From sequence record OQ689734.1: 64,000 bases of DNA. One strand, written 5' to 3'. Made by a program: the position numbers and the translations under genes. The stretch comes from Escherichia phage 4E8. Shown piece by piece: positions 2,325-61,707 of the stretch (positions within the stretch are counted from its first letter, which is position 1; the number at the start of each line of letters is the position of its first letter). A model generated the notes under the pieces. That model did not search any database. It had not been told where the DNA came from and saw only the letters and a program-made list of their open reading frames with translations.

Positions 2325-3866
2325 ATGTCATTAGATAAACAAATTTATGAAGCTCTAACTGGTAACAACCTTAGTGTAGACGAAAAGAAAGCACTATTGA
2401 ATATGTTGAAAGAGCGTGACCAATGGAGGAAGTATAATAGGATTTTGTCTTTCAAGGCGTATGACTTCCAAAAGAAATTTTATGCAGCAGGATTGAAGCA
2501 TCGCTTTAGATTCTTGTGTGCAGCGAACCGTGTTGGTAAATCTTATAGCGAGGCATACGAGTTTGCTTGTCATGTCACAGGTCGCTATCCAACTTGGTGG
2601 ACAGGATATAAATTTAAAAGACCTATCCTTGCATGGGCAGTTGGTATTACAGGGGATTCCACAAGGAAAGTATTGCAAAAGGAATTGTTTGGTACACCTA
2701 TCGGAAAGGATACAAATTTATTAGGGACAGGTGTCATTCCTCGTGATGCTATCGTCATTGACACGATAGAGCGAGATGGTAACAAACTTCAAATCGTACA
2801 AATCAAACATCAAAATGAAAGAGGAGAGTTTGACGGTTTAAGTACATTAGAATTCCGTTCAACCCAACAGGGTGAACACACATTGATGGGTGCAACAGTT
2901 GACTACATTTGGTTAGACGAAGAAGATCCATATGAATCTATGGCAATCTTCTCTCAGTGCGTAACACGTACACTTACAACTAAAGGTTTAGTTACTATTA
3001 CAGCTACACCAGAGAACGGTTTAACAGAGCTGGTGGATAAGTTTATGAAAGGTGAAGGAGATGAGAACACAGGTTCTCTGTATTTCCAGAATGCTTCTTG
3101 GTGGGATGCTCATGTAGATTTAGGTGGACATATCACTGACCAAGATATTAAAGACATGACTGAAGGTATCCCAACATGGCAGTTAGAGATGCGTTCAAAA
3201 GGTATGCCGTTGCTTGGTTCTGGTTTAATTTATGATGTATCAGATGACATGATTAAGTGTGATCCCTTTGAGATACCTGATACGTGGAAACGTGTTTGTG
3301 CTATTGATATTGGTATCGATCACCCGACAGCCGCTGTTTGGACAGCATATGATGCTAACACTGATACGATTTATGTTTATGACTGCTATAAAGAAGGTGG
3401 ATTTACTCCGGTGTATCATGCACCAGCTATTAATGGTCGTGGTCAGTGGATTCCAGTTATTCTTCCTCACGATGCCGATAATATTGAGAAGGGAAGTGGT
3501 TCGTCTGTTGCTCAATTCTATAAGAATGCAGGGGTTAATGTACAGAGTGAGACCTTCTACAACAAGATTGGAATGGATGGTAAGAAGAACTTCTTTGTAG
3601 AGCCGGGAATTACTGATATTCGTGAACGTATGATGTCAGGTCGTTTTAAAATCTTTAACATTGCTTCATGTGCTAAACTCTTTGAAGAGAAAGCTCGCTA
3701 TCACCGTAAGGTTGGCAAGATTGTTAAGGAACATGATGACTTGATGGATGCTATGCGATATTCAGCTTGTTCTGTAACACATCGTGGACGTAGTAAGCAT
3801 GATGCTAGTTATGGTAGTTCATCGCTTTATCAAGACAATATTAACAGATGGAATCAGACCTACTAA
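2325..3866 (+). CDS. terL: terminase large subunit
   Basis: 513 aa; Walker A-like FLCAANRVGKSY and Walker B-like IWLDEED in the N-terminal ATPase part; C-terminal nuclease-sized domain; located at the head of the morphogenesis module. Confidence 0.85.
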   Translation: MSLDKQIYEALTGNNLSVDEKKALLNMLKERDQWRKYNRILSFKAYDFQKKFYAAGLKHRFRFLCAANRVGKSYSEAYEFACHVTGRYPTWWTGYKFKRPILAWAVGITGDSTRKVLQKELFGTPIGKDTNLLGTGVIPRDAIVIDTIERDGNKLQIVQIKHQNERGEFDGLSTLEFRSTQQGEHTLMGATVDYIWLDEEDPYESMAIFSQCVTRTLTTKGLVTITATPENGLTELVDKFMKGEGDENTGSLYFQNASWWDAHVDLGGHITDQDIKDMTEGIPTWQLEMRSKGMPLLGSGLIYDVSDDMIKCDPFEIPDTWKRVCAIDIGIDHPTAAVWTAYDANTDTIYVYDCYKEGGFTPVYHAPAINGRGQWIPVILPHDADNIEKGSGSSVAQFYKNAGVNVQSETFYNKIGMDGKKNFFVEPGITDIRERMMSGRFKIFNIASCAKLFEEKARYHRKVGKIVKEHDDLMDAMRYSACSVTHRGRSKHDASYGSSSLYQDNINRWNQTY

Positions 3867-3871
3867 AAATA

Positions 3872-3895
3872 GGGGAGGCTTTATCCTCCCTTTAG
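3872..3895 (+). terminator. weak terminator-like hairpin (gggagg...cctccc + TTT)
   Basis: short GC stem with a short T-run after the terL stop. Confidence 0.3.
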
Positions 3896-3931
3896 TAGTT
3901 CCTTCCAAGCTATCACCGAGGGAGAGATTAG

Positions 3932-6175
3932 ATGGCTAAGAAGAAATTTAGTGAAGATGTTTTGGATGAATTACGCGTTGACCTTCAACGTCGATTCAAT
4001 TATGCTCAAGGTTATGTAGACTTAGCTGTAAAAGGCTATGCTCGTGAGGCTTGGGAATACTTCTATGGGAACCTTCCTGCTCCAGTTACTGCTGGTAGCT
4101 CTAGTTGGGTAGACCGTACGGTATGGGAATCAGTGAATGGTACGCTCCAAGATATCATTAACGTGTTCTGTTCTGGTGACGAAGCGGTAACTTTCGTAGC
4201 CGATAACCAAGAAGACAGTGATGCTGCTGACGTAGCCACTAAACTTGTCAACCAAATTTTGTTACGTGATAATCCGGGATACAATATTATCTCTTCAGCG
4301 GCACAAGAGTGTCTGGTTACACGTAACTCTTTTATTAAATATTATTGGGATGAACAGACTTCTACTCAAACAGAAGAAGCAGAGGGTGTTCCTCCGGAAG
4401 CTTTGGCTGCATATGTCCAAGGTTTAGAAGCTGGTGGGCTTCAAGATTTAGAAATCTTTACCACTGACAACGAAGATGGTACAGTGGATGTTAAAGTAAC
4501 TTACAAACAAACAGTAAAACGCGTTAAAGTAGAATATGTTCCTTCAGAACAGATTTTTGTTGACGAACATGCTACCTCTTTTGCAGATGCTCAGTATTTC
4601 TGTCATCGCACACGTAAATCTAAAGAAGATCTGGTTGCTATGGGCTTCCCTAAAGATGAAATTGAAGCTTTTAATGACTGGACTGATACAATGGACACCA
4701 CTCAATCTACTGTTGCATGGTCACGTACTGACTGGCGTCAGGATATAGATTCAGATATCGGTGTAGACACTGATGATATCGCTTCTATGGTTTGGGTTTA
4801 TGAACATTACATCCGTACTGGTGTACTGGATAAGAATAAAGAAGCAAAACTCTATCAGGTTATTCAAGCAGGCGAGCATATTCTCTCTTGTGAAGAAGTA
4901 ACTAGCATTCCTTTTGTAACATTCTGCCCTTATCCTATTCCGGGTTCATTCTATGGACAGTCGGTTTATGATATTACTAAAGATATTCAGGATTTGCGTA
5001 CCGCTTTGGTTCGTGGTTATATCGATAACGTAAACAATGCTAACTATGGTCGTTATAAGGCTCTTGTAGGTGCTTATGACCGTCGTTCTCTACTGGATAA
5101 CCGTCCGGGTGGTGTAGTAGAAATGGAGCGTCAGGATGCGATTGATCTCTTCCCTTACCACAATCTACCTCAGGGTATTGATGGCTTACTAGGAATGTCA
5201 GATGAGTTGAAAGAGACTCGTACTGGTGTTACTAAACTTGGTATGGGTATTAACCCTGATGTGTTTAAGAATGATAACGCATATGCAACTGTTGGATTGA
5301 TGATGAATGCTGCTCAGAACCGTCTCCGTATGGTCTGTCGTAACATTGCTCACAACGGTATGGTTGAATTGATGCGTGGTATTTATAATTTAGTCCGAGA
5401 AAATGGTGAGGTTCCTTTACAAGTACAAACCCCTCGTGGTATGGTTCAGGTTCATCCTAAACAACTGCCTGCTCGTCACAATCTACAAGTTGTTGTAGCT
5501 ATCTCTCCTAGCGAGAAATCAGAACGTGCACAGAAACTCATTAGTCTGAAGCAATTAATTGCTGCTGATGCTCAGTTAGCACCTCTGTTTACTCTGGAGC
5601 AAGATCGTTACATGACTGCACAGATCTTCGAGTTGATGGGAATTAAAGACACTCACAAATACTTAATGCCTCTGGAACAGTATCAACCGCCAGAACCTTC
5701 TCCGATGGAAATCCTCCAGCTTGAGATGACTAAAGCACAGGTTGAGAACGTACAGGCTTCTTCTCAGAAGATGATTGCTGATGCATTCGACCAGCGTGAA
5801 CGCACTACGTTTGAACAGCAGAAAGCTGCGGACGAGTTCAGCTTACGTCAAGAAGAACTGCAATTTAAGCAAGAGAATGCTGCTGATCAGATGACTTTGG
5901 AGAATCGTAAAGAAGACAACAGTGCTACACTTGAACAGGCTAAGCACAAGTTGGCTCTGCTCCAGCAACAGGTCCGTCAGTATGAATCTGTACTTAAAGA
6001 ATTGCAGATGACTCTTAATCATCAGGTCGATGTTGAGAAAGTTGCAAATCAGGCTAAGATTCAAGATAAGACTTTGGAACTCCAAAAGAAAGAAGCAAAT
6101 GAAACTAAGAAAGAACAGCAGAGTTCAATCAAAGATTCACGGATTCCTAACCGTCGTCTTGGTAGTAGAAAATAA
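3932..6175 (+). CDS. portal protein (positional call)
   Basis: 747 aa ORF immediately after terL, good SD; C-terminal coiled-coil/charged tail; no specific motif recognised. Confidence 0.55.
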   Translation: MAKKKFSEDVLDELRVDLQRRFNYAQGYVDLAVKGYAREAWEYFYGNLPAPVTAGSSSWVDRTVWESVNGTLQDIINVFCSGDEAVTFVADNQEDSDAADVATKLVNQILLRDNPGYNIISSAAQECLVTRNSFIKYYWDEQTSTQTEEAEGVPPEALAAYVQGLEAGGLQDLEIFTTDNEDGTVDVKVTYKQTVKRVKVEYVPSEQIFVDEHATSFADAQYFCHRTRKSKEDLVAMGFPKDEIEAFNDWTDTMDTTQSTVAWSRTDWRQDIDSDIGVDTDDIASMVWVYEHYIRTGVLDKNKEAKLYQVIQAGEHILSCEEVTSIPFVTFCPYPIPGSFYGQSVYDITKDIQDLRTALVRGYIDNVNNANYGRYKALVGAYDRRSLLDNRPGGVVEMERQDAIDLFPYHNLPQGIDGLLGMSDELKETRTGVTKLGMGINPDVFKNDNAYATVGLMMNAAQNRLRMVCRNIAHNGMVELMRGIYNLVRENGEVPLQVQTPRGMVQVHPKQLPARHNLQVVVAISPSEKSERAQKLISLKQLIAADAQLAPLFTLEQDRYMTAQIFELMGIKDTHKYLMPLEQYQPPEPSPMEILQLEMTKAQVENVQASSQKMIADAFDQRERTTFEQQKAADEFSLRQEELQFKQENAADQMTLENRKEDNSATLEQAKHKLALLQQQVRQYESVLKELQMTLNHQVDVEKVANQAKIQDKTLELQKKEANETKKEQQSSIKDSRIPNRRLGSRK

Positions 6176-56113: not shown

Positions 56114-58147
56114 TTAGTGTTTACCTTTACAGTAATCTGAATTACAGATCACCCTGTTTTCTTTGTTCAGTGAGCAAGTTTCTGCATCACGCCACGGAAT
56201 TTGTTTATAACAGACTGCACAAAACCCAATTGAAGTCCAGAGGGCTTTTGTAAACTCAGCTGTTCGTTGTCCATCGTAACTGACAACTGTTTTTCGGAGA
56301 GAGGTTGACTTTTCTGGAAATGTCTCCGCTTTCTCAGCGGGTACCTCCTTTGGGGCATTCTTTGGACCATAAACAGAGATGGCATAAGTATCACCACCAC
56401 GTTTTTCCAAATACGAATTAGGAACATCTGCAAGTGTGATGTCCCCTGAACGTTTTGCTGAGCTGACCATTACAATCATACGGCTAAGCATACGTTCATC
56501 AACACGAACAGCTACTTCAGGACGACGTGGGTTGGTTGTGTCTACTGCTTTAGTCCAAATATAACCTTCAGATAGAGTAACATTCTTTACTTTATCTTTG
56601 ATTTCTTTGGAGCAGATATAACAAACGTCTTCACCACGAAGTTTACTCATTTCATTGTCAAACTCGAAATCAGTCTTGACTTCACCACAGATAGCACATA
56701 CACCCAAAGGCACATCTTCTTCCTCTTCAGAGGTTTTAGATAACGCTTCGAAGCATTCTGGATGCCAGTATGCCTGATAAGCAAACACAGCCTTACGAGC
56801 ATCTTTCCAGTCAATGTGCTTATCACAACCACCACAGTCACCATGAGAGTGAGATTCCCAGAACTTACGAGTGACTTCTACACCATTCTTAGTGATGAAG
56901 GAGTCCTCTGCATCAAAAGGGATATCATCATCAAAATCAGCAGTAGTGCTTTGAGGCTCCTTATCTGTAGCATCAACAAACAGCCCTGAAGTTAGTACGA
57001 GGCGAATCATACTGTCCACTTCGGAGATACAAGCAATCGTCCCGCGATATACTACCTTTGGGTTTTCAAGAGCCTTAAGATATTCATCTTTGGCTACGTT
57101 GTGAACATCCCCTTCGACATACTCTTGAGCTTTATCATCGTAGATGTAACCAACCATCTTACCACGATCTGTGTTGTTATAAGCATGGAACTCGTGAGGA
57201 ATAATATCCACACGACCATCACGACGATAAGGAAGACCACGATCGGCAGCCAGTTTGTTCTGGTCTTCAATCGCTTTACGACGACGAATGTCTCCGCTTG
57301 TCACGCCGGGCTTGTCGTCTTTGTTTCCGTAAATGTCGCTTGTGCTGCTGCTTGATTTGTTTGTCTGTTGGTTCTGATAAAGAGAGGAGTTCGAGTAATA
57401 GCCGCCCCAGCGACTCGTTACCGTAAAAACCGGAAGCGTGTGCTCCACCTCTTGAACCAGAGTCATACGACTGTTAGACACATCAAAGATATACTCAGTT
57501 CCCACTTTACATTCGAAGTGGTCATTGATACGGTTCTTATGGGACTTAGAACGCTCTAAAATCCACATAAGCATAGCTTCTTCAGAAGCTCCAAACCAAT
57601 CCAAACCACAGCGGGCTAGGTGGAAAGGACGCTCATCATTACGGATAATGTGAAGTGTGTTGTCTTTAGCATCATGCCAAATCAAAGTGAATGCACCATC
57701 CAGTTTTTGGATAGTCTCTGCTGCTCCAATGGTGTTAATTGAGTGGCAGATGTTTTCACTATCAACTTCGAAACGCTTACTGTCAGGAAGGAGATCTTGA
57801 TCTAACAGGGTTCCATTATGAACCAGAGTAATATCCCCGTAAGTAAATGGGTGAGCATTTCGAGCATTGACAGCCCCACGAGTGGCATGTCGGCTGTGAC
57901 CAACAATCCACGAAGGAGGAACTACGTAGTTCGTAAGCCCTTTGGTAATATTTGTATATTCTGTCTGGAGCATAAAAGCATAAGAAGGAAGAGCTTCTTT
58001 ATAAGAGAAGACTTGCTTTTCACCTTTACGCTGACCAAACACACCAGTTGAGTGCTGTCCACGGAAAACACCAGCATACAGAAGTTGGTTGAAAATGTCC
58101 AAATCTGCTGAGGTCATGTTGCCGCCAGCTAATACGATACCACAAAT
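56114..58147 (-). CDS. class-II (Ntn) glutamine amidotransferase domain protein with Cys-rich C-terminal region; predicted AUU start
   Basis: reading upstream of the annotated ATG gives K-I-C-G-I-V-L-A-G-G-N-M...FRGQHSTGVF, the PurF/GlmS-type N-terminus (CGIVG...RGQDxxG) plus GHSRHATRG...NAHPF; ATT at 58145..58147 lies 8 nt after AGGTGG. Confidence 0.65.
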   Translation of the reverse strand: MCGIVLAGGNMTSADLDIFNQLLYAGVFRGQHSTGVFGQRKGEKQVFSYKEALPSYAFMLQTEYTNITKGLTNYVVPPSWIVGHSRHATRGAVNARNAHPFTYGDITLVHNGTLLDQDLLPDSKRFEVDSENICHSINTIGAAETIQKLDGAFTLIWHDAKDNTLHIIRNDERPFHLARCGLDWFGASEEAMLMWILERSKSHKNRINDHFECKVGTEYIFDVSNSRMTLVQEVEHTLPVFTVTSRWGGYYSNSSLYQNQQTNKSSSSTSDIYGNKDDKPGVTSGDIRRRKAIEDQNKLAADRGLPYRRDGRVDIIPHEFHAYNNTDRGKMVGYIYDDKAQEYVEGDVHNVAKDEYLKALENPKVVYRGTIACISEVDSMIRLVLTSGLFVDATDKEPQSTTADFDDDIPFDAEDSFITKNGVEVTRKFWESHSHGDCGGCDKHIDWKDARKAVFAYQAYWHPECFEALSKTSEEEEDVPLGVCAICGEVKTDFEFDNEMSKLRGEDVCYICSKEIKDKVKNVTLSEGYIWTKAVDTTNPRRPEVAVRVDERMLSRMIVMVSSAKRSGDITLADVPNSYLEKRGGDTYAISVYGPKNAPKEVPAEKAETFPEKSTSLRKTVVSYDGQRTAEFTKALWTSIGFCAVCYKQIPWRDAETCSLNKENRVICNSDYCKGKH

Positions 58148-58224
58148 TTTCTAATCCACCTGAAGGGTAAACCCTTTCATCTAATTAACCTTTAAATGCG
58201 CCCTGTATAAGAGCGCCCGTTGTG

Positions 58225-59325
58225 TTACAGCAGTCGTTCTAATTGCATTTCCAGATGGTCTGGAATATAACCAGTGACGTTATCATCACTGCTACCTGAT
58301 TCACGCATCAATGCAAACATGTGACGAATTTCACGAACCGTTGCGATTCGAGTGCTTTCAATCTGAGGGGTGTAGTAGGTCATGATCTCTTCGTAGACAC
58401 TGTTGGCATTACCGCGCACATATCCCAAGAAACCATAGAAGTCATTCATATCACGTAAGTTGATAAGGACTTCACCATCAGGGCCAGTCTGTTGCACACG
58501 AACACGACCAACCAAAGTTACAGATTGCTCACGACAGAAGAGAATATCACGAGCAAGACGATACCCTTCAGTGAGATCACTGTCTCTTGGAGTATAGTCT
58601 AGGGGTAGATGTTGAATCATAGGAGCGAAGCGCAGCTCATTCAACTTCTCAACATAAGCTTCATTGTCTAAATCTGCATATTCAACAGCCAGTTTCTTGA
58701 GAACCAAGAAGCGGTTGACCAGATTCAGAAGTTGGCTCTTTTTCCACTTCGGCTCTGAGATACGGAACTCAACAGAACCAAATTGAGATAGAGGCAAAAG
58801 ATTAAGGGAGGTATATTTATCCCAGCTATTAACAAGAGAGTGGAAGAAAGCTTCCCCGTCTCGGTTGAACGCTGACGAAGCATTCATAACTTGTGCTTGA
58901 ACGACAGCAAAAGCTGGACAGAAGTTGCTACGATAGCGATGGTATCCAGAACATTTGAACATCATCTTTTCATAGAACGTCCATCCAAGAATAACTTTCT
59001 TAAGGATATTACTATCAGCGTCACGCATATCCATATGAACGTGAGTGGAGCAGCGCCAAGTTCCCTCGGCTCCAGAATCCTGTACTGCTTCACTCAGATT
59101 GTTAATAGCACGAAGTAATTCTTCACCGTTGTAAGGTCGTGCACATACTAATTCACAACCATCACGAAGAGAGCCATCTTCAGTACAAACCCACATATCA
59201 GCGTCAATGTCAGTTGTACCTTCGACTTCTAACTCAATACCAACACCACACTGAAAAGCAATACTTGGATGCGGTTCAGATAAGCGAGGGTTACGGTATC
59301 CAAAAACTTGTGCTACGGTTGTCAT
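58225..59325 (-). CDS. amidoligase-like (glutamine-synthetase-fold carboxylate-amine ligase) protein
   Basis: 366 aa; GIELEVEG, EDGSLRDGCELV and CSTHVHMD resemble conserved E-x-E / DGS / HxH elements of GS-like amidoligases. Confidence 0.45.
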   Translation of the reverse strand: MTTVAQVFGYRNPRLSEPHPSIAFQCGVGIELEVEGTTDIDADMWVCTEDGSLRDGCELVCARPYNGEELLRAINNLSEAVQDSGAEGTWRCSTHVHMDMRDADSNILKKVILGWTFYEKMMFKCSGYHRYRSNFCPAFAVVQAQVMNASSAFNRDGEAFFHSLVNSWDKYTSLNLLPLSQFGSVEFRISEPKWKKSQLLNLVNRFLVLKKLAVEYADLDNEAYVEKLNELRFAPMIQHLPLDYTPRDSDLTEGYRLARDILFCREQSVTLVGRVRVQQTGPDGEVLINLRDMNDFYGFLGYVRGNANSVYEEIMTYYTPQIESTRIATVREIRHMFALMRESGSSDDNVTGYIPDHLEMQLERLL

Positions 59326-59957: not shown

Positions 59958-60764
59958 TTATACAATCTGGAGTTTAGAGGAGAATTTATCCGCTTCTTTA
60001 ACATCGTTACTGTTGATGATGTTGTGAAGCTTTTCAATTGGAAGGCGAGAGTGAAGTGACATCAATACTTCCATATCACAGCCTTGAACAACCTTATCAA
60101 CTTGCTCATAAACAAACTTGCGGGTTGACTTCTCGCCAATCCAGAAGTTAGAAAGAGAACGATATTCAATACCGTAATCTTTGTAGCGAATGGCAGAAGC
60201 CTTTCCGTACAACTCTTTACGACGAGTGTCTTTATCCATGATCACAGCTGGCAAGGACAGGAAGTAATCACACAACACACCCAACATCATTTGAGTCTGA
60301 CGACTAATTTCCAGCGTACCAGTGACGCCAAGGTGAACATGACCGCCAGCAGTACGCAGACCTTTGTCTGTCGCTACTGGTGAAGGGTTCTTTTGTCCAG
60401 TGAAGGCATTGAAATCAGGAGTACAACCAAATACAAAGGCTGACGGATGGAAAGATTCCAGCTCTTCTGAAGTGAACACATGAGAGCTAATCCCAAGTGC
60501 TGCCTCCATGCCACGTTCATTGAGAACTTTGTTAGTCAGATCAATACCGCGCTGAATGTTATCATCAAACGCTTCAAACCCTTTCTGTGGGTTAATATCA
60601 AACTCGGCCAGAACGTTATCTTCTTGAAGACGAACATCAGGAGCCAGATCAATTTTATTATCTTTAGAACAGCCCAGCTTACCAGCCACAGAGGTGATAA
60701 TACCGGAAGCAGTACGAACAAACATTTCAGGGTCAGAGCCAATAAGGAAAGCGCGCTTAGTCAT
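59958..60764 (-). CDS. hypothetical protein, possibly a second amidoligase-like enzyme
   Basis: start set to MTKRAFLIGSDPEMF; contains GSDPEMFV, QEDNVLAEF and AGGHVHLGV (weak E/HxH-type resemblance). Confidence 0.3.
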   Translation of the reverse strand: MTKRAFLIGSDPEMFVRTASGIITSVAGKLGCSKDNKIDLAPDVRLQEDNVLAEFDINPQKGFEAFDDNIQRGIDLTNKVLNERGMEAALGISSHVFTSEELESFHPSAFVFGCTPDFNAFTGQKNPSPVATDKGLRTAGGHVHLGVTGTLEISRQTQMMLGVLCDYFLSLPAVIMDKDTRRKELYGKASAIRYKDYGIEYRSLSNFWIGEKSTRKFVYEQVDKVVQGCDMEVLMSLHSRLPIEKLHNIINSNDVKEADKFSSKLQIV

Positions 60765-61707
60765 TGTAATACTCCACGAGTTCATCAAAAAGGGAAACAA
60801 CACGAGCACCAGCTTCTTCTGGTGTCATTGAGGAAGGTACTGCTTGCATCAGACGTTCGATAAAACTTCGAACAGTAATCCTGTCCATACGCTGATCTAA
60901 TACTTCTCGCTTGTGACCTGCACAAGTTGACCAGAGACGTAACCACTCACTCATACTCTCATAATGGTCAGGGTCTTGGTCACGACGACGTGCCATACGA
61001 CGGAGAACTCCATCATTATGGTTTCGTACATAACCATCTCGGTTGTCATCAACACCGAATACATTCTGAACCCATACGTTTTCAGAAAATTCATCAGTGG
61101 TGCAAATTAATGGCAGAAATGCAATTGCACTCATGTCGCCATCAAAATAAGTCGCTGCTGACTCATCGGTTGAGTCTACGTCATTACTATAACACCAGCG
61201 ACCAAAGAAGTTACGACTTAAACCAGCTAAGCGTAGAGCTAAACCGATTCGTTGTCGCTTAAGCAACTCTTCCTTGTCTTGTACGCCTTCCTGAAGGAAC
61301 TCCATTCCATTAAAATCACCATCCAAATAGCTACGGATGGTCATTAGTCCAGTAAACACCTTGTCTGCTGGATGGTTTCGAAGGTTCACGGCAATGGAGT
61401 TCACCGAAGTGACAGAGAACATATCTTTATAGCAAGACATTGAGTTAAAAATGTCTGTTGCTTCAACTAAAGCTCTTTCGATATCTTTAGCTGGCACGCC
61501 ATAAAAATTGTGAGGCCAGAAGTTAATAACTTCAATTTCTGAAGTTCTATCACGAAGGTTTGTTCGGTTACGACTTTCACCGTTAATGTCTGTAACAGAG
61601 TACATGTGCATACAGTTAAAAGTACCAAAGCAAGCTCTTCCTTTGAACACTGACTCACCGAAATCCTCTGCCGGTGTTACCGGAGCAATCGATGCGGAGA
61701 TTGACAT
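60757..61707 (-). CDS. hypothetical protein
   Basis: 316 aa ORF in the accessory cluster. Confidence 0.4.
   Translation of the reverse strand: MSISASIAPVTPAEDFGESVFKGRACFGTFNCMHMYSVTDINGESRNRTNLRDRTSEIEVINFWPHNFYGVPAKDIERALVEATDIFNSMSCYKDMFSVTSVNSIAVNLRNHPADKVFTGLMTIRSYLDGDFNGMEFLQEGVQDKEELLKRQRIGLALRLAGLSRNFFGRWCYSNDVDSTDESAATYFDGDMSAIAFLPLICTTDEFSENVWVQNVFGVDDNRDGYVRNHNDGVLRRMARRRDQDPDHYESMSEWLRLWSTCAGHKREVLDQRMDRITVRSFIERLMQAVPSSMTPEEAGARVVSLFDELVEYYND

Follow-up and report, generated by a model that had tools for sequence, protein, structure and literature searches.

A class-II glutamine amidotransferase of phiEco32-like coliphages with a probable AUU start codon directly before its catalytic cysteine

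The amidotransferase gene and its start region

The stretch of DNA analyzed here, a 64-kb window from Escherichia phage 4E8 (OQ689734.1; "the window" hereafter), carries on its minus strand a gene for a glutamine amidotransferase whose first codon appears to be AUU. The window derives from a phiEco32-like coliphage (Suseptimavirus, Gordonclarkvirinae), the region being 99.9% identical to vB_EcoP-101114UKE3 (UKE3), IME267 and MLP3 and matching 96 phiEco32-like podophage records (Gordonclarkvirinae) at 77–100% identity. Read from the proposed ATT to its stop, the full coding sequence (CDS) spans 56114..58147 (677 codons plus stop), the same length as the Bas87 CDS (2754–4787, 2034 nt), and is the counterpart of the phiEco32 phi32_83 CDS, which has the same ATT. 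A program-made list of open reading frames (ORFs) starts the gene at ATG 58117 instead, yielding a 667-aa ORF.

Along the minus strand, TAG (58153–58151) is followed by AAA (58150–58148), ATT (58147–58145) and TGT (58144–58142), after which GGT ATC GTA TTA GCT GGC GGC AAC (ending at 58118) leads into the next ATG (58117–58115), such that the translation across the start region reads stop-K-I-C-G-I-V-L-A-G-G-N-M-T-S. A preliminary description of this DNA had marked 58118..58147, which are the ten codons from ATT to AAC, and had noted no in-frame ATG, GTG or TTG between stop and Cys and AGGTGG 8 nt upstream of the ATT; direct reading returns exactly this, in that AAA and ATT alone separate the in-frame TAG from the Cys codon and the Shine-Dalgarno-like AGGTGG (58156..58161) precedes the ATT (58145..58147) by the 8-nt spacer ATTAGAAA. 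The absence of a canonical start from so short a stretch is trivial by itself; it is conservation that puts the observation beyond chance. In the segment 58139–58147 (minus strand, AUUUGUGG), a UUG and a GUG also occur out of frame, 2 and 4 nt past the AUU, and ATG-type relatives carry AUGUGUGG, an AUGUG motif, which is reported to permit dual-frame initiation in E. coli (PMC9841429).

The same description had assigned the product to the class-II amidotransferases, with PurF, GlmS and AsnB as the comparators, and here all lines of analysis agree. Pfam returns GATase_6 (E 1.5e-14) together with GATase_7, and phmmer against the GlmS glutaminase domain (1xff) aligns GHSRHATRG, HNG and DSE. In an alignment with 50 distant homologs (51 sequences), C1, G2, R28, G29, H83, R85, N110, G111 and D128 are invariant; counterparts in GlmS are Cys1 (C1), Arg26 (R28), Arg73 (R85), Asn98-Gly99 (N110-G111) and Asp123 (D128), with the glutamine-binding and oxyanion residues all present. 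The AlphaFold model (predicted local distance difference test score 93, predicted template modeling (TM) score 0.91) opens its first β-strand at Cys1, encoded by the TGT at 58142..58144 (strand E2-7 follows Cys1), and a Foldseek search of the PDB places the GlmS glutaminase domain at the top (E 3e-14, TM 0.69–0.71), followed by PurF, AsnB and EgtC (all four within E 1e-14 to 1e-10); model and search together recover the four-layer αββα fold of the N-terminal nucleophile (Ntn) hydrolases. Judged on model and alignment, the N-terminus is a genuine class-II (Ntn) glutaminase domain of ~240 aa with a confident GlmS-like fold and a predicted activity, and the long C-terminal region behind it has many CxxC motifs. 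Detection of nine peptides of the SU10 ortholog gp85 shows the protein to be produced in infection (PMC4281155).

At 677 aa, the amidotransferase is longer than most of its homologs (~370–430 aa). Its C-terminal part (56114–57400, minus strand) is rich in CxxC pairs and gives a weak LIM-like Pfam match (E 0.008); the homolog consensus also terminates in CxxC...CxxC, which suggests zinc-ribbon modules.

Across the family, Met stands directly before Cys in ~88% of members: the codon in question is ATG in 70 of 80 IMG/VR loci (a further one reads ATG TGC TGT), and ~60 of 75 database homologs begin MCG, in keeping with the rule, invoked in the preliminary description, that the Cys follows the initiator. 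ATT-TGT occupies this position in every phiEco32-like copy read (ECBP2, KBNP1711, EP335, Bas90 and phiEco32 among them). It is kept along with the leader 5' of it in 11 of 11 genomes read base by base, in five IMG/VR contigs and in six metagenome contigs, and a 75-nt query comprising leader and start is 97–100% identical in 96 records. The ATT is also present in Aeromonas phage BUCT695, so that the noncanonical start is conserved in all phiEco32-like copies read and beyond them.

The downstream ATG (58115..58117; Met10 if Cys is residue 1), at which automated annotation starts the gene, behaves otherwise. In its place phiEco32 and Bas90 have CTG, and KBNP1711 and EP335 have CTC; Kuravirus and Nieuwekanaalvirus relatives lack it (loss counted in three genera). 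The codons that precede it are kept: among coliphages, codons 2–9 show synonymous changes only (GGT/GGC, GCT/GCA, GGC/GGG/GGT, GGC/GGT/GGA), to which BUCT695 adds GTA/GTC, TTA/TTG and a single Gly-to-Ser replacement at codon 9. Over codons 2–101 of the 11 genomes, 81 of 100 third positions vary, versus 26 first and 17 second positions, the third-position variation beginning at codon 3. By this substitution pattern, the codons between the ATT and the downstream ATG are evidently under protein-level selection. The ATT stands at the start position, a Shine-Dalgarno sequence precedes it at a workable distance, and 5' of the essential residues there is no canonical start in frame. We consider it very likely that the gene at 56114..58147 encodes a class-II glutamine amidotransferase translated from the AUU at 58147–58145, a reading that the comparison with relatives strongly supports. 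The preliminary interpretation is hence supported, every testable part of it having held; it did not mention that the ATT is already annotated in some records, that the in-frame stop belongs to a 9-codon mini-ORF, or that such starts recur in other lineages.

As an annotation, the ATT start is not new. The CDS already begins there in the phiEco32 type record EU330206 (2008; phi32_83; position 2549 of our locus L015), in the SU10 RefSeq record and in Bas87 and Bas90 of the BASEL collection, and the annotated CDSs of Bas88, Bas92 and Bas94 cover it; BASEL annotations were refined by hand from whole-genome alignments with related phages (PMC11990801). Elsewhere the expected truncation by automated callers is widespread. 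Among 60 matches listed, seven have a CDS over the first codons, four are unannotated and 49 have no CDS there, putting the truncated form at ~49 of 56 annotated records among those matches, including the nearest relatives of the window and RefSeq versions. UKE3 (its RefSeq version included), IME267, MLP3, SU7 and HC-25922, the closest records to the window, are truncated in this way, as is ECBP2; in KBNP1711 and EP335, which lack that ATG, the annotated start lies 40–60 codons further in. These records lack the catalytic Cys, and function prediction or structure modeling from them therefore begins with a dead enzyme. Our literature search, which did not extend to the phiEco32 genome and transcription papers, found no discussion of or experiment on this start codon; it goes unmentioned in the SU10, SU7, 7-11 and BASEL papers, and the SU10 supplements contain no peptide list. 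Exceptions of this kind are known, and this one is already in the record of the type phage but widely mis-annotated elsewhere.

An invariant leader with a mini-ORF and a hairpin

The 47-nt leader directly 5' of the ATT (58148..58194, minus strand) is invariant among the sampled phiEco32-like phages: it has 0 variable sites in the same 11 genomes whose codons vary so freely at third positions, and is identical in all metagenome copies. Within it lies a putative mini-ORF of nine codons (58151..58180, minus strand; ATG AAA GGG TTT ACC CTT CAG GTG GAT TAG, MKGFTLQVD*). It shares the reading frame of the amidotransferase, does not differ between the coliphage copies, and has its UAG 3 nt before the AUU. 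Inside the mini-ORF and flush 5' of the Shine-Dalgarno sequence is a small hairpin (58161..58179, minus strand; UGAA(A)GGG-UUUA-CCCUUCA), and the 32-nt stretch that contains it folds at -6.1 kcal/mol. It is this local element alone that stands out, as z-scores for folding of the whole leader (136, 66 and 41 nt) are near 0, and an Rfam scan of 57950–58350 gave sub-threshold chance matches only. The leader blocks are unique within the window at up to 3 mismatches (repeated-motif scan), and pattern scans of IMG/VR and the metagenome collection returned identical copies only, plus three chance matches.

BUCT695, a phage of another family (Grimontviridae; locus L016, 4003–4049), also carries the leader, with two changes, both within the mini-ORF (giving MKGLTLQAD*); one falls in the hairpin loop and the other mid-Shine-Dalgarno, converting AGGTGG to AGGCGG, such that the conserved element is effectively AGGNGG. 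Since BUCT695 shares the leader even though its protein groups with ATG-type relatives on a rough neighbor-joining (NJ) tree, the block would be either very old and tightly constrained or exchanged between phages; the comparison suggests very strong constraint or horizontal transfer.

ATTAGA occurs twice in the leader (58150–58155 and 58181–58186, minus strand), on either side of the 25-nt block TGAAAGGGTTTACCCTTCAGGTGG, and the ATG-start relatives L032–L037 read TTAAATGTAAATTAGAGGA...ATG with no such block; this comparison raises the possibility that the block with the hairpin and Shine-Dalgarno sequence arose by insertion or duplication. L032–L037 (larger relatives, on contigs of ~82–92 kb) and BUCT695 also have TTTAAATGTAA ~20–30 nt before the start, where the window has TTTAAAGGTTAA; the former resembles the consensus of the phiEco32 gp36 sigma-dependent promoters (tAATGTAtA, quoted in PMC8948821).

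Upstream of the leader, an amidoligase gene (58225..59325, minus strand; Pfam Amidoligase_2) is read in a frame that differs from that of the amidotransferase and belongs to the same early-operon enzyme cluster, the order typical of these phages being COOH-NH2 ligase, hypothetical protein, amidoligase, amidotransferase, two small genes and an ATP-grasp enzyme. A consensus scan of the spacer between amidoligase and amidotransferase gave no relevant promoter or terminator, and Table S2 of the SU10 study has none between these genes, so the leader is probably an intercistronic stretch of an early transcript. Just 3' of the amidoligase stop lies a second hairpin (58198..58216, minus strand) whose stem differs between sub-clades yet still pairs (arms GCGCTCT/AGGGCGC in the window, GTGCCTC/GGGGCAC in relatives). 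With only ATTT after it, this is no classical terminator; it may be an RNA-stability or processing element. For the COOH-NH2 ligase ORF (59958–60809, minus strand), the program-made start is a GTG (283 aa), whereas related records give 268–269 aa (807–810 nt), lengths that fit an internal ATG (MTKRAF...): an ordinary start-site ambiguity.

Candidate noncanonical starts in other lineages

The phiEco32-like phages are not alone in lacking ATG before the conserved Cys, and the only noncanonical codons found there are ATT and ATC. Locus L026 reads TAA CTG GAGGATACCCCT ATT TGC (GGAGG, 8 nt, ATT); L061 has AGGAGG 8 nt before ATT TGT; L075 has TAGGAG 8 nt before ATT TGT, a leader repeated in its sister L094, where ATC replaces the ATT. 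L021 has GAGG 8 nt before ATT TGT, an amidoligase stop 1 nt before the ATT and an in-frame TTG seven codons upstream, and L019 (GTG ACT AAA ATT TGT) is ambiguous. No in-frame start lies upstream of the ATT in L026, L061 or L075, and L094 has one distant ATG. Aligned Shine-Dalgarno spacing is 7–8 nt in all these lineages (GGAGG, AGGAGG, AGGAG or GAGG), compared with 8 in the window if AGGNGG is the pairing element. The ATT/ATC lineages are scattered among ATG relatives on the rough NJ tree, amounting to at least six occurrences.

Two further candidates, distant homologs that looked truncated, were rejected: P0056 has an ordinary ATG TGT that the gene caller got wrong, and P0034 an ATG TGT followed by a frameshift on a contig of 1.96x coverage. 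A different departure is seen in L063 (IMG/VR, ~1195–1206), where ATG TGC TGT GGA encodes Met-Cys-Cys-Gly, with an extra Cys before the conserved Cys-Gly.

The recurrent starts may share more than a codon. Over the 32 nt 5' of the Shine-Dalgarno sequence, median minimum free energy is -5.95 kcal/mol for the eight ATT/ATC loci (L026, L061, L075, L094, L019, L016, L027 and the window) versus -0.75 kcal/mol for 56 canonical-start loci, and the composition-corrected z is -1.53 versus +0.44 (Mann-Whitney, one-sided p 2e-5, or 1e-4 with six dereplicated lineages), a post hoc comparison in which the 32-nt stretch was picked after the data had been seen and many of the canonical-start loci are marine contigs related to one another. 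Between the sisters L075 and L094, the hairpin keeps its place but differs in sequence. We hypothesize that ATT/ATC starts are linked to a small hairpin 5' of the Shine-Dalgarno sequence.

A broader proposal would be that the leader, with its mini-ORF and hairpin, is a module dedicated to controlling translation from an AUU that is weak by design, kept or exchanged across two phage families (the Gordonclarkvirinae coliphages and the Grimontviridae phage BUCT695), and that phage class-II amidotransferases have repeatedly switched from AUG to AUU or AUC and, with the switch, acquired a hairpin on the 5' side of the Shine-Dalgarno sequence. We advance this tentatively, thinking it rather less probable than its negation; if true, selection would have arrived more than once at this means of limiting or timing a glutaminase that could do harm.

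Alternative readings, mechanism and known systems

Several observations weigh against a simple AUU start. The Shine-Dalgarno sequence is imperfect, the spacing of AGGTGG being 11 nt if AGGUG pairs with CACCU and 8 nt only if AGGNGG is used; a conserved Ile codon would likewise give ATT in L075 and ATC in its sister L094; and the invariance of the leader exceeds the needs of a Shine-Dalgarno sequence and a start codon, which argues that something else acts there. In one alternative, the AUU would be reached mainly by termination–reinitiation from the mini-ORF (58180–58151) in the manner of thrS–infC, with mini-ORF and hairpin making up a control module of their own. Such a route would refine an AUU start rather than replace it, and as the principal one it strikes us as possible but doubtful, although reinitiation is plausible as a contributor. 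In its favor, the ATG, frame and TAG of the mini-ORF are kept in all coliphage copies and BUCT695, its stop–3 nt–AUU geometry equals the UAA-GGU-AUU of infC, and the actual upstream amidoligase gene stops 1 nt (L021) or 15 nt (L026) before the ATT; about half of infC translation comes from reinitiation at the thrS–infC junction (PMC3592434). On the other hand, third codon positions of the mini-ORF are as invariant as the rest (leaving its coding status putative), both BUCT695 changes alter its peptide, and its AUG sits within the hairpin stem. Its own Shine-Dalgarno sequence (AAAGG) is not kept in BUCT695 either, which weakens the idea of a restart. In L019, no upstream ORF of appreciable length ends within ~50 nt of the ATT, and L061 and L094 have only short, putative ORFs ending 4 nt upstream.

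The remaining alternatives dispense with the AUU altogether. The conserved, in-frame mini-ORF invites a reading in which translation starts at its AUG and reads through the UAG, giving a precursor MKGFTLQVD-X-KI-CGIV... whose 12-residue propeptide is removed autocatalytically; propeptide-processed class-II amidotransferases exist (Bacillus subtilis PurF, GltB), and the GTG ACT AAA ATT TGT of L019 would be compatible with a 4-residue propeptide. UAG read-through is normally very inefficient, however, and ARAGORN found no tRNA gene, and therefore no phage-encoded amber suppressor, in the 64-kb window. Instead of an upstream in-frame start with a propeptide ending at the Cys, there is a conserved TAG two codons before the ATT; L026, L061 and L075 have no upstream in-frame start of any kind, and the predominance of Met directly before Cys in the family likewise speaks against processing, such that we regard this reading as improbable. 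Slimmer still are the chances that the protein starts at ATG 58117 or further downstream, its Ntn domain being an inactive binding remnant with no Cys1: no other canonical start is available, and most annotation pipelines choose this ATG, but it is missing from phiEco32, Bas90, KBNP1711 and EP335, the nine codons 5' of it change only synonymously among coliphages, and all catalytic residues are invariant family-wide. Finally, a single base separates ATT from ATG, and L020, the closest outgroup, reads ATG TGT, as would befit an error in sequencing or a pseudogene recently inactivated by mutation of its ATG to ATT. This is effectively refuted by the conservation data, given the same ATT in ~100 independently sequenced genomes plus contigs, an ORF intact across 677 codons under purifying selection, and detection of the SU10 protein by mass spectrometry (PMC4281155).

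For translation from the AUU itself, a mechanism can be assembled from the established cases of AUU initiation (infC and pcnB), from Ntn amidotransferases and from the specificity of methionine aminopeptidase. AGGTGG, 8 nt upstream, would position the 30S subunit; the AUU would be read by initiator tRNA as formylmethionine (fMet); and deformylase and methionine aminopeptidase would then strip the fMet, Cys being a small second residue, to leave Cys1 exposed as the catalytic nucleophile. We infer both the decoding and the exposure of Cys1 by analogy with these systems, and the expected N-terminal peptide would be CGIVLAGGNMTSADLDIFNQLLYAGVFR, with a free N-terminal Cys. A share of initiation may come from ribosomes that finish the 9-codon mini-ORF and restart 3 nt past its UAG. 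In E. coli, initiation at AUU is proven for infC and pcnB and reaches ~1–15% of AUG (10.1101/063800; PMC3592434); near-cognate ATT/ATC starts work at ~1–2% of AUG in one E. coli study (10.1101/063800), and AUU lies 6–8-fold below AUG in another reporter system (PMC3592434). With so weak a start, the enzyme is probably made at a low, controlled level, as the analogy would have it.

None of this changes the known mechanism of initiation. Modestly interesting as new leads are the invariance of the leader, its infC-like arrangement of stop, 3 nt and AUU, and the repeated occurrence of AUU/AUC together with a hairpin. To our knowledge, only infC and pcnB have been experimentally confirmed as AUU starts in E. 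coli. The phage gene adds a well-supported natural case from coliphages (~100 sequenced copies, with at least six independent parallels in related phage enzymes and a leader whose architecture lends itself to testing). It would be a convenient system in which to study the use and tuning of weak start codons in the course of an infection.

Comparison with known systems places the gene as follows. phiEco32 gp83, SU10 gp85 and the proteins of BASEL phages Bas86–94 are orthologs (81–99.7% identical) with the same leader. With GlmS, PurF and AsnB the phage protein has fold and catalytic residues in common but only ~20% sequence identity; its partner domain is the CxxC-rich region rather than a sugar isomerase, phosphoribosyltransferase or synthetase, and unlike theirs its gene sits in a phiEco32-type cluster of amidoligase, COOH-NH2 ligase and ATP-grasp enzymes. 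As in B. subtilis PurF and GltB, the N-terminal Cys must be exposed post-translationally; in the phage, a stop stands in frame two codons upstream and leaves no room for a normal propeptide, and Met removal by an aminopeptidase is expected in its place. The closest likeness in initiation is to infC and pcnB, which pair an AUU start with an upstream Shine-Dalgarno sequence and for which weak initiation is likewise expected, and to infC above all, where a stop in the upstream frame lies exactly 3 nt before the AUU (UAA-GGU-AUU, compared with UAG-AAA-AUU in the phage). The upstream frame of the phage is a 9-codon mini-ORF, however, rather than a full gene; the initiation factor 3-dependent autoregulation that operates on infC would, moreover, have no evident rationale for a phage amidotransferase.

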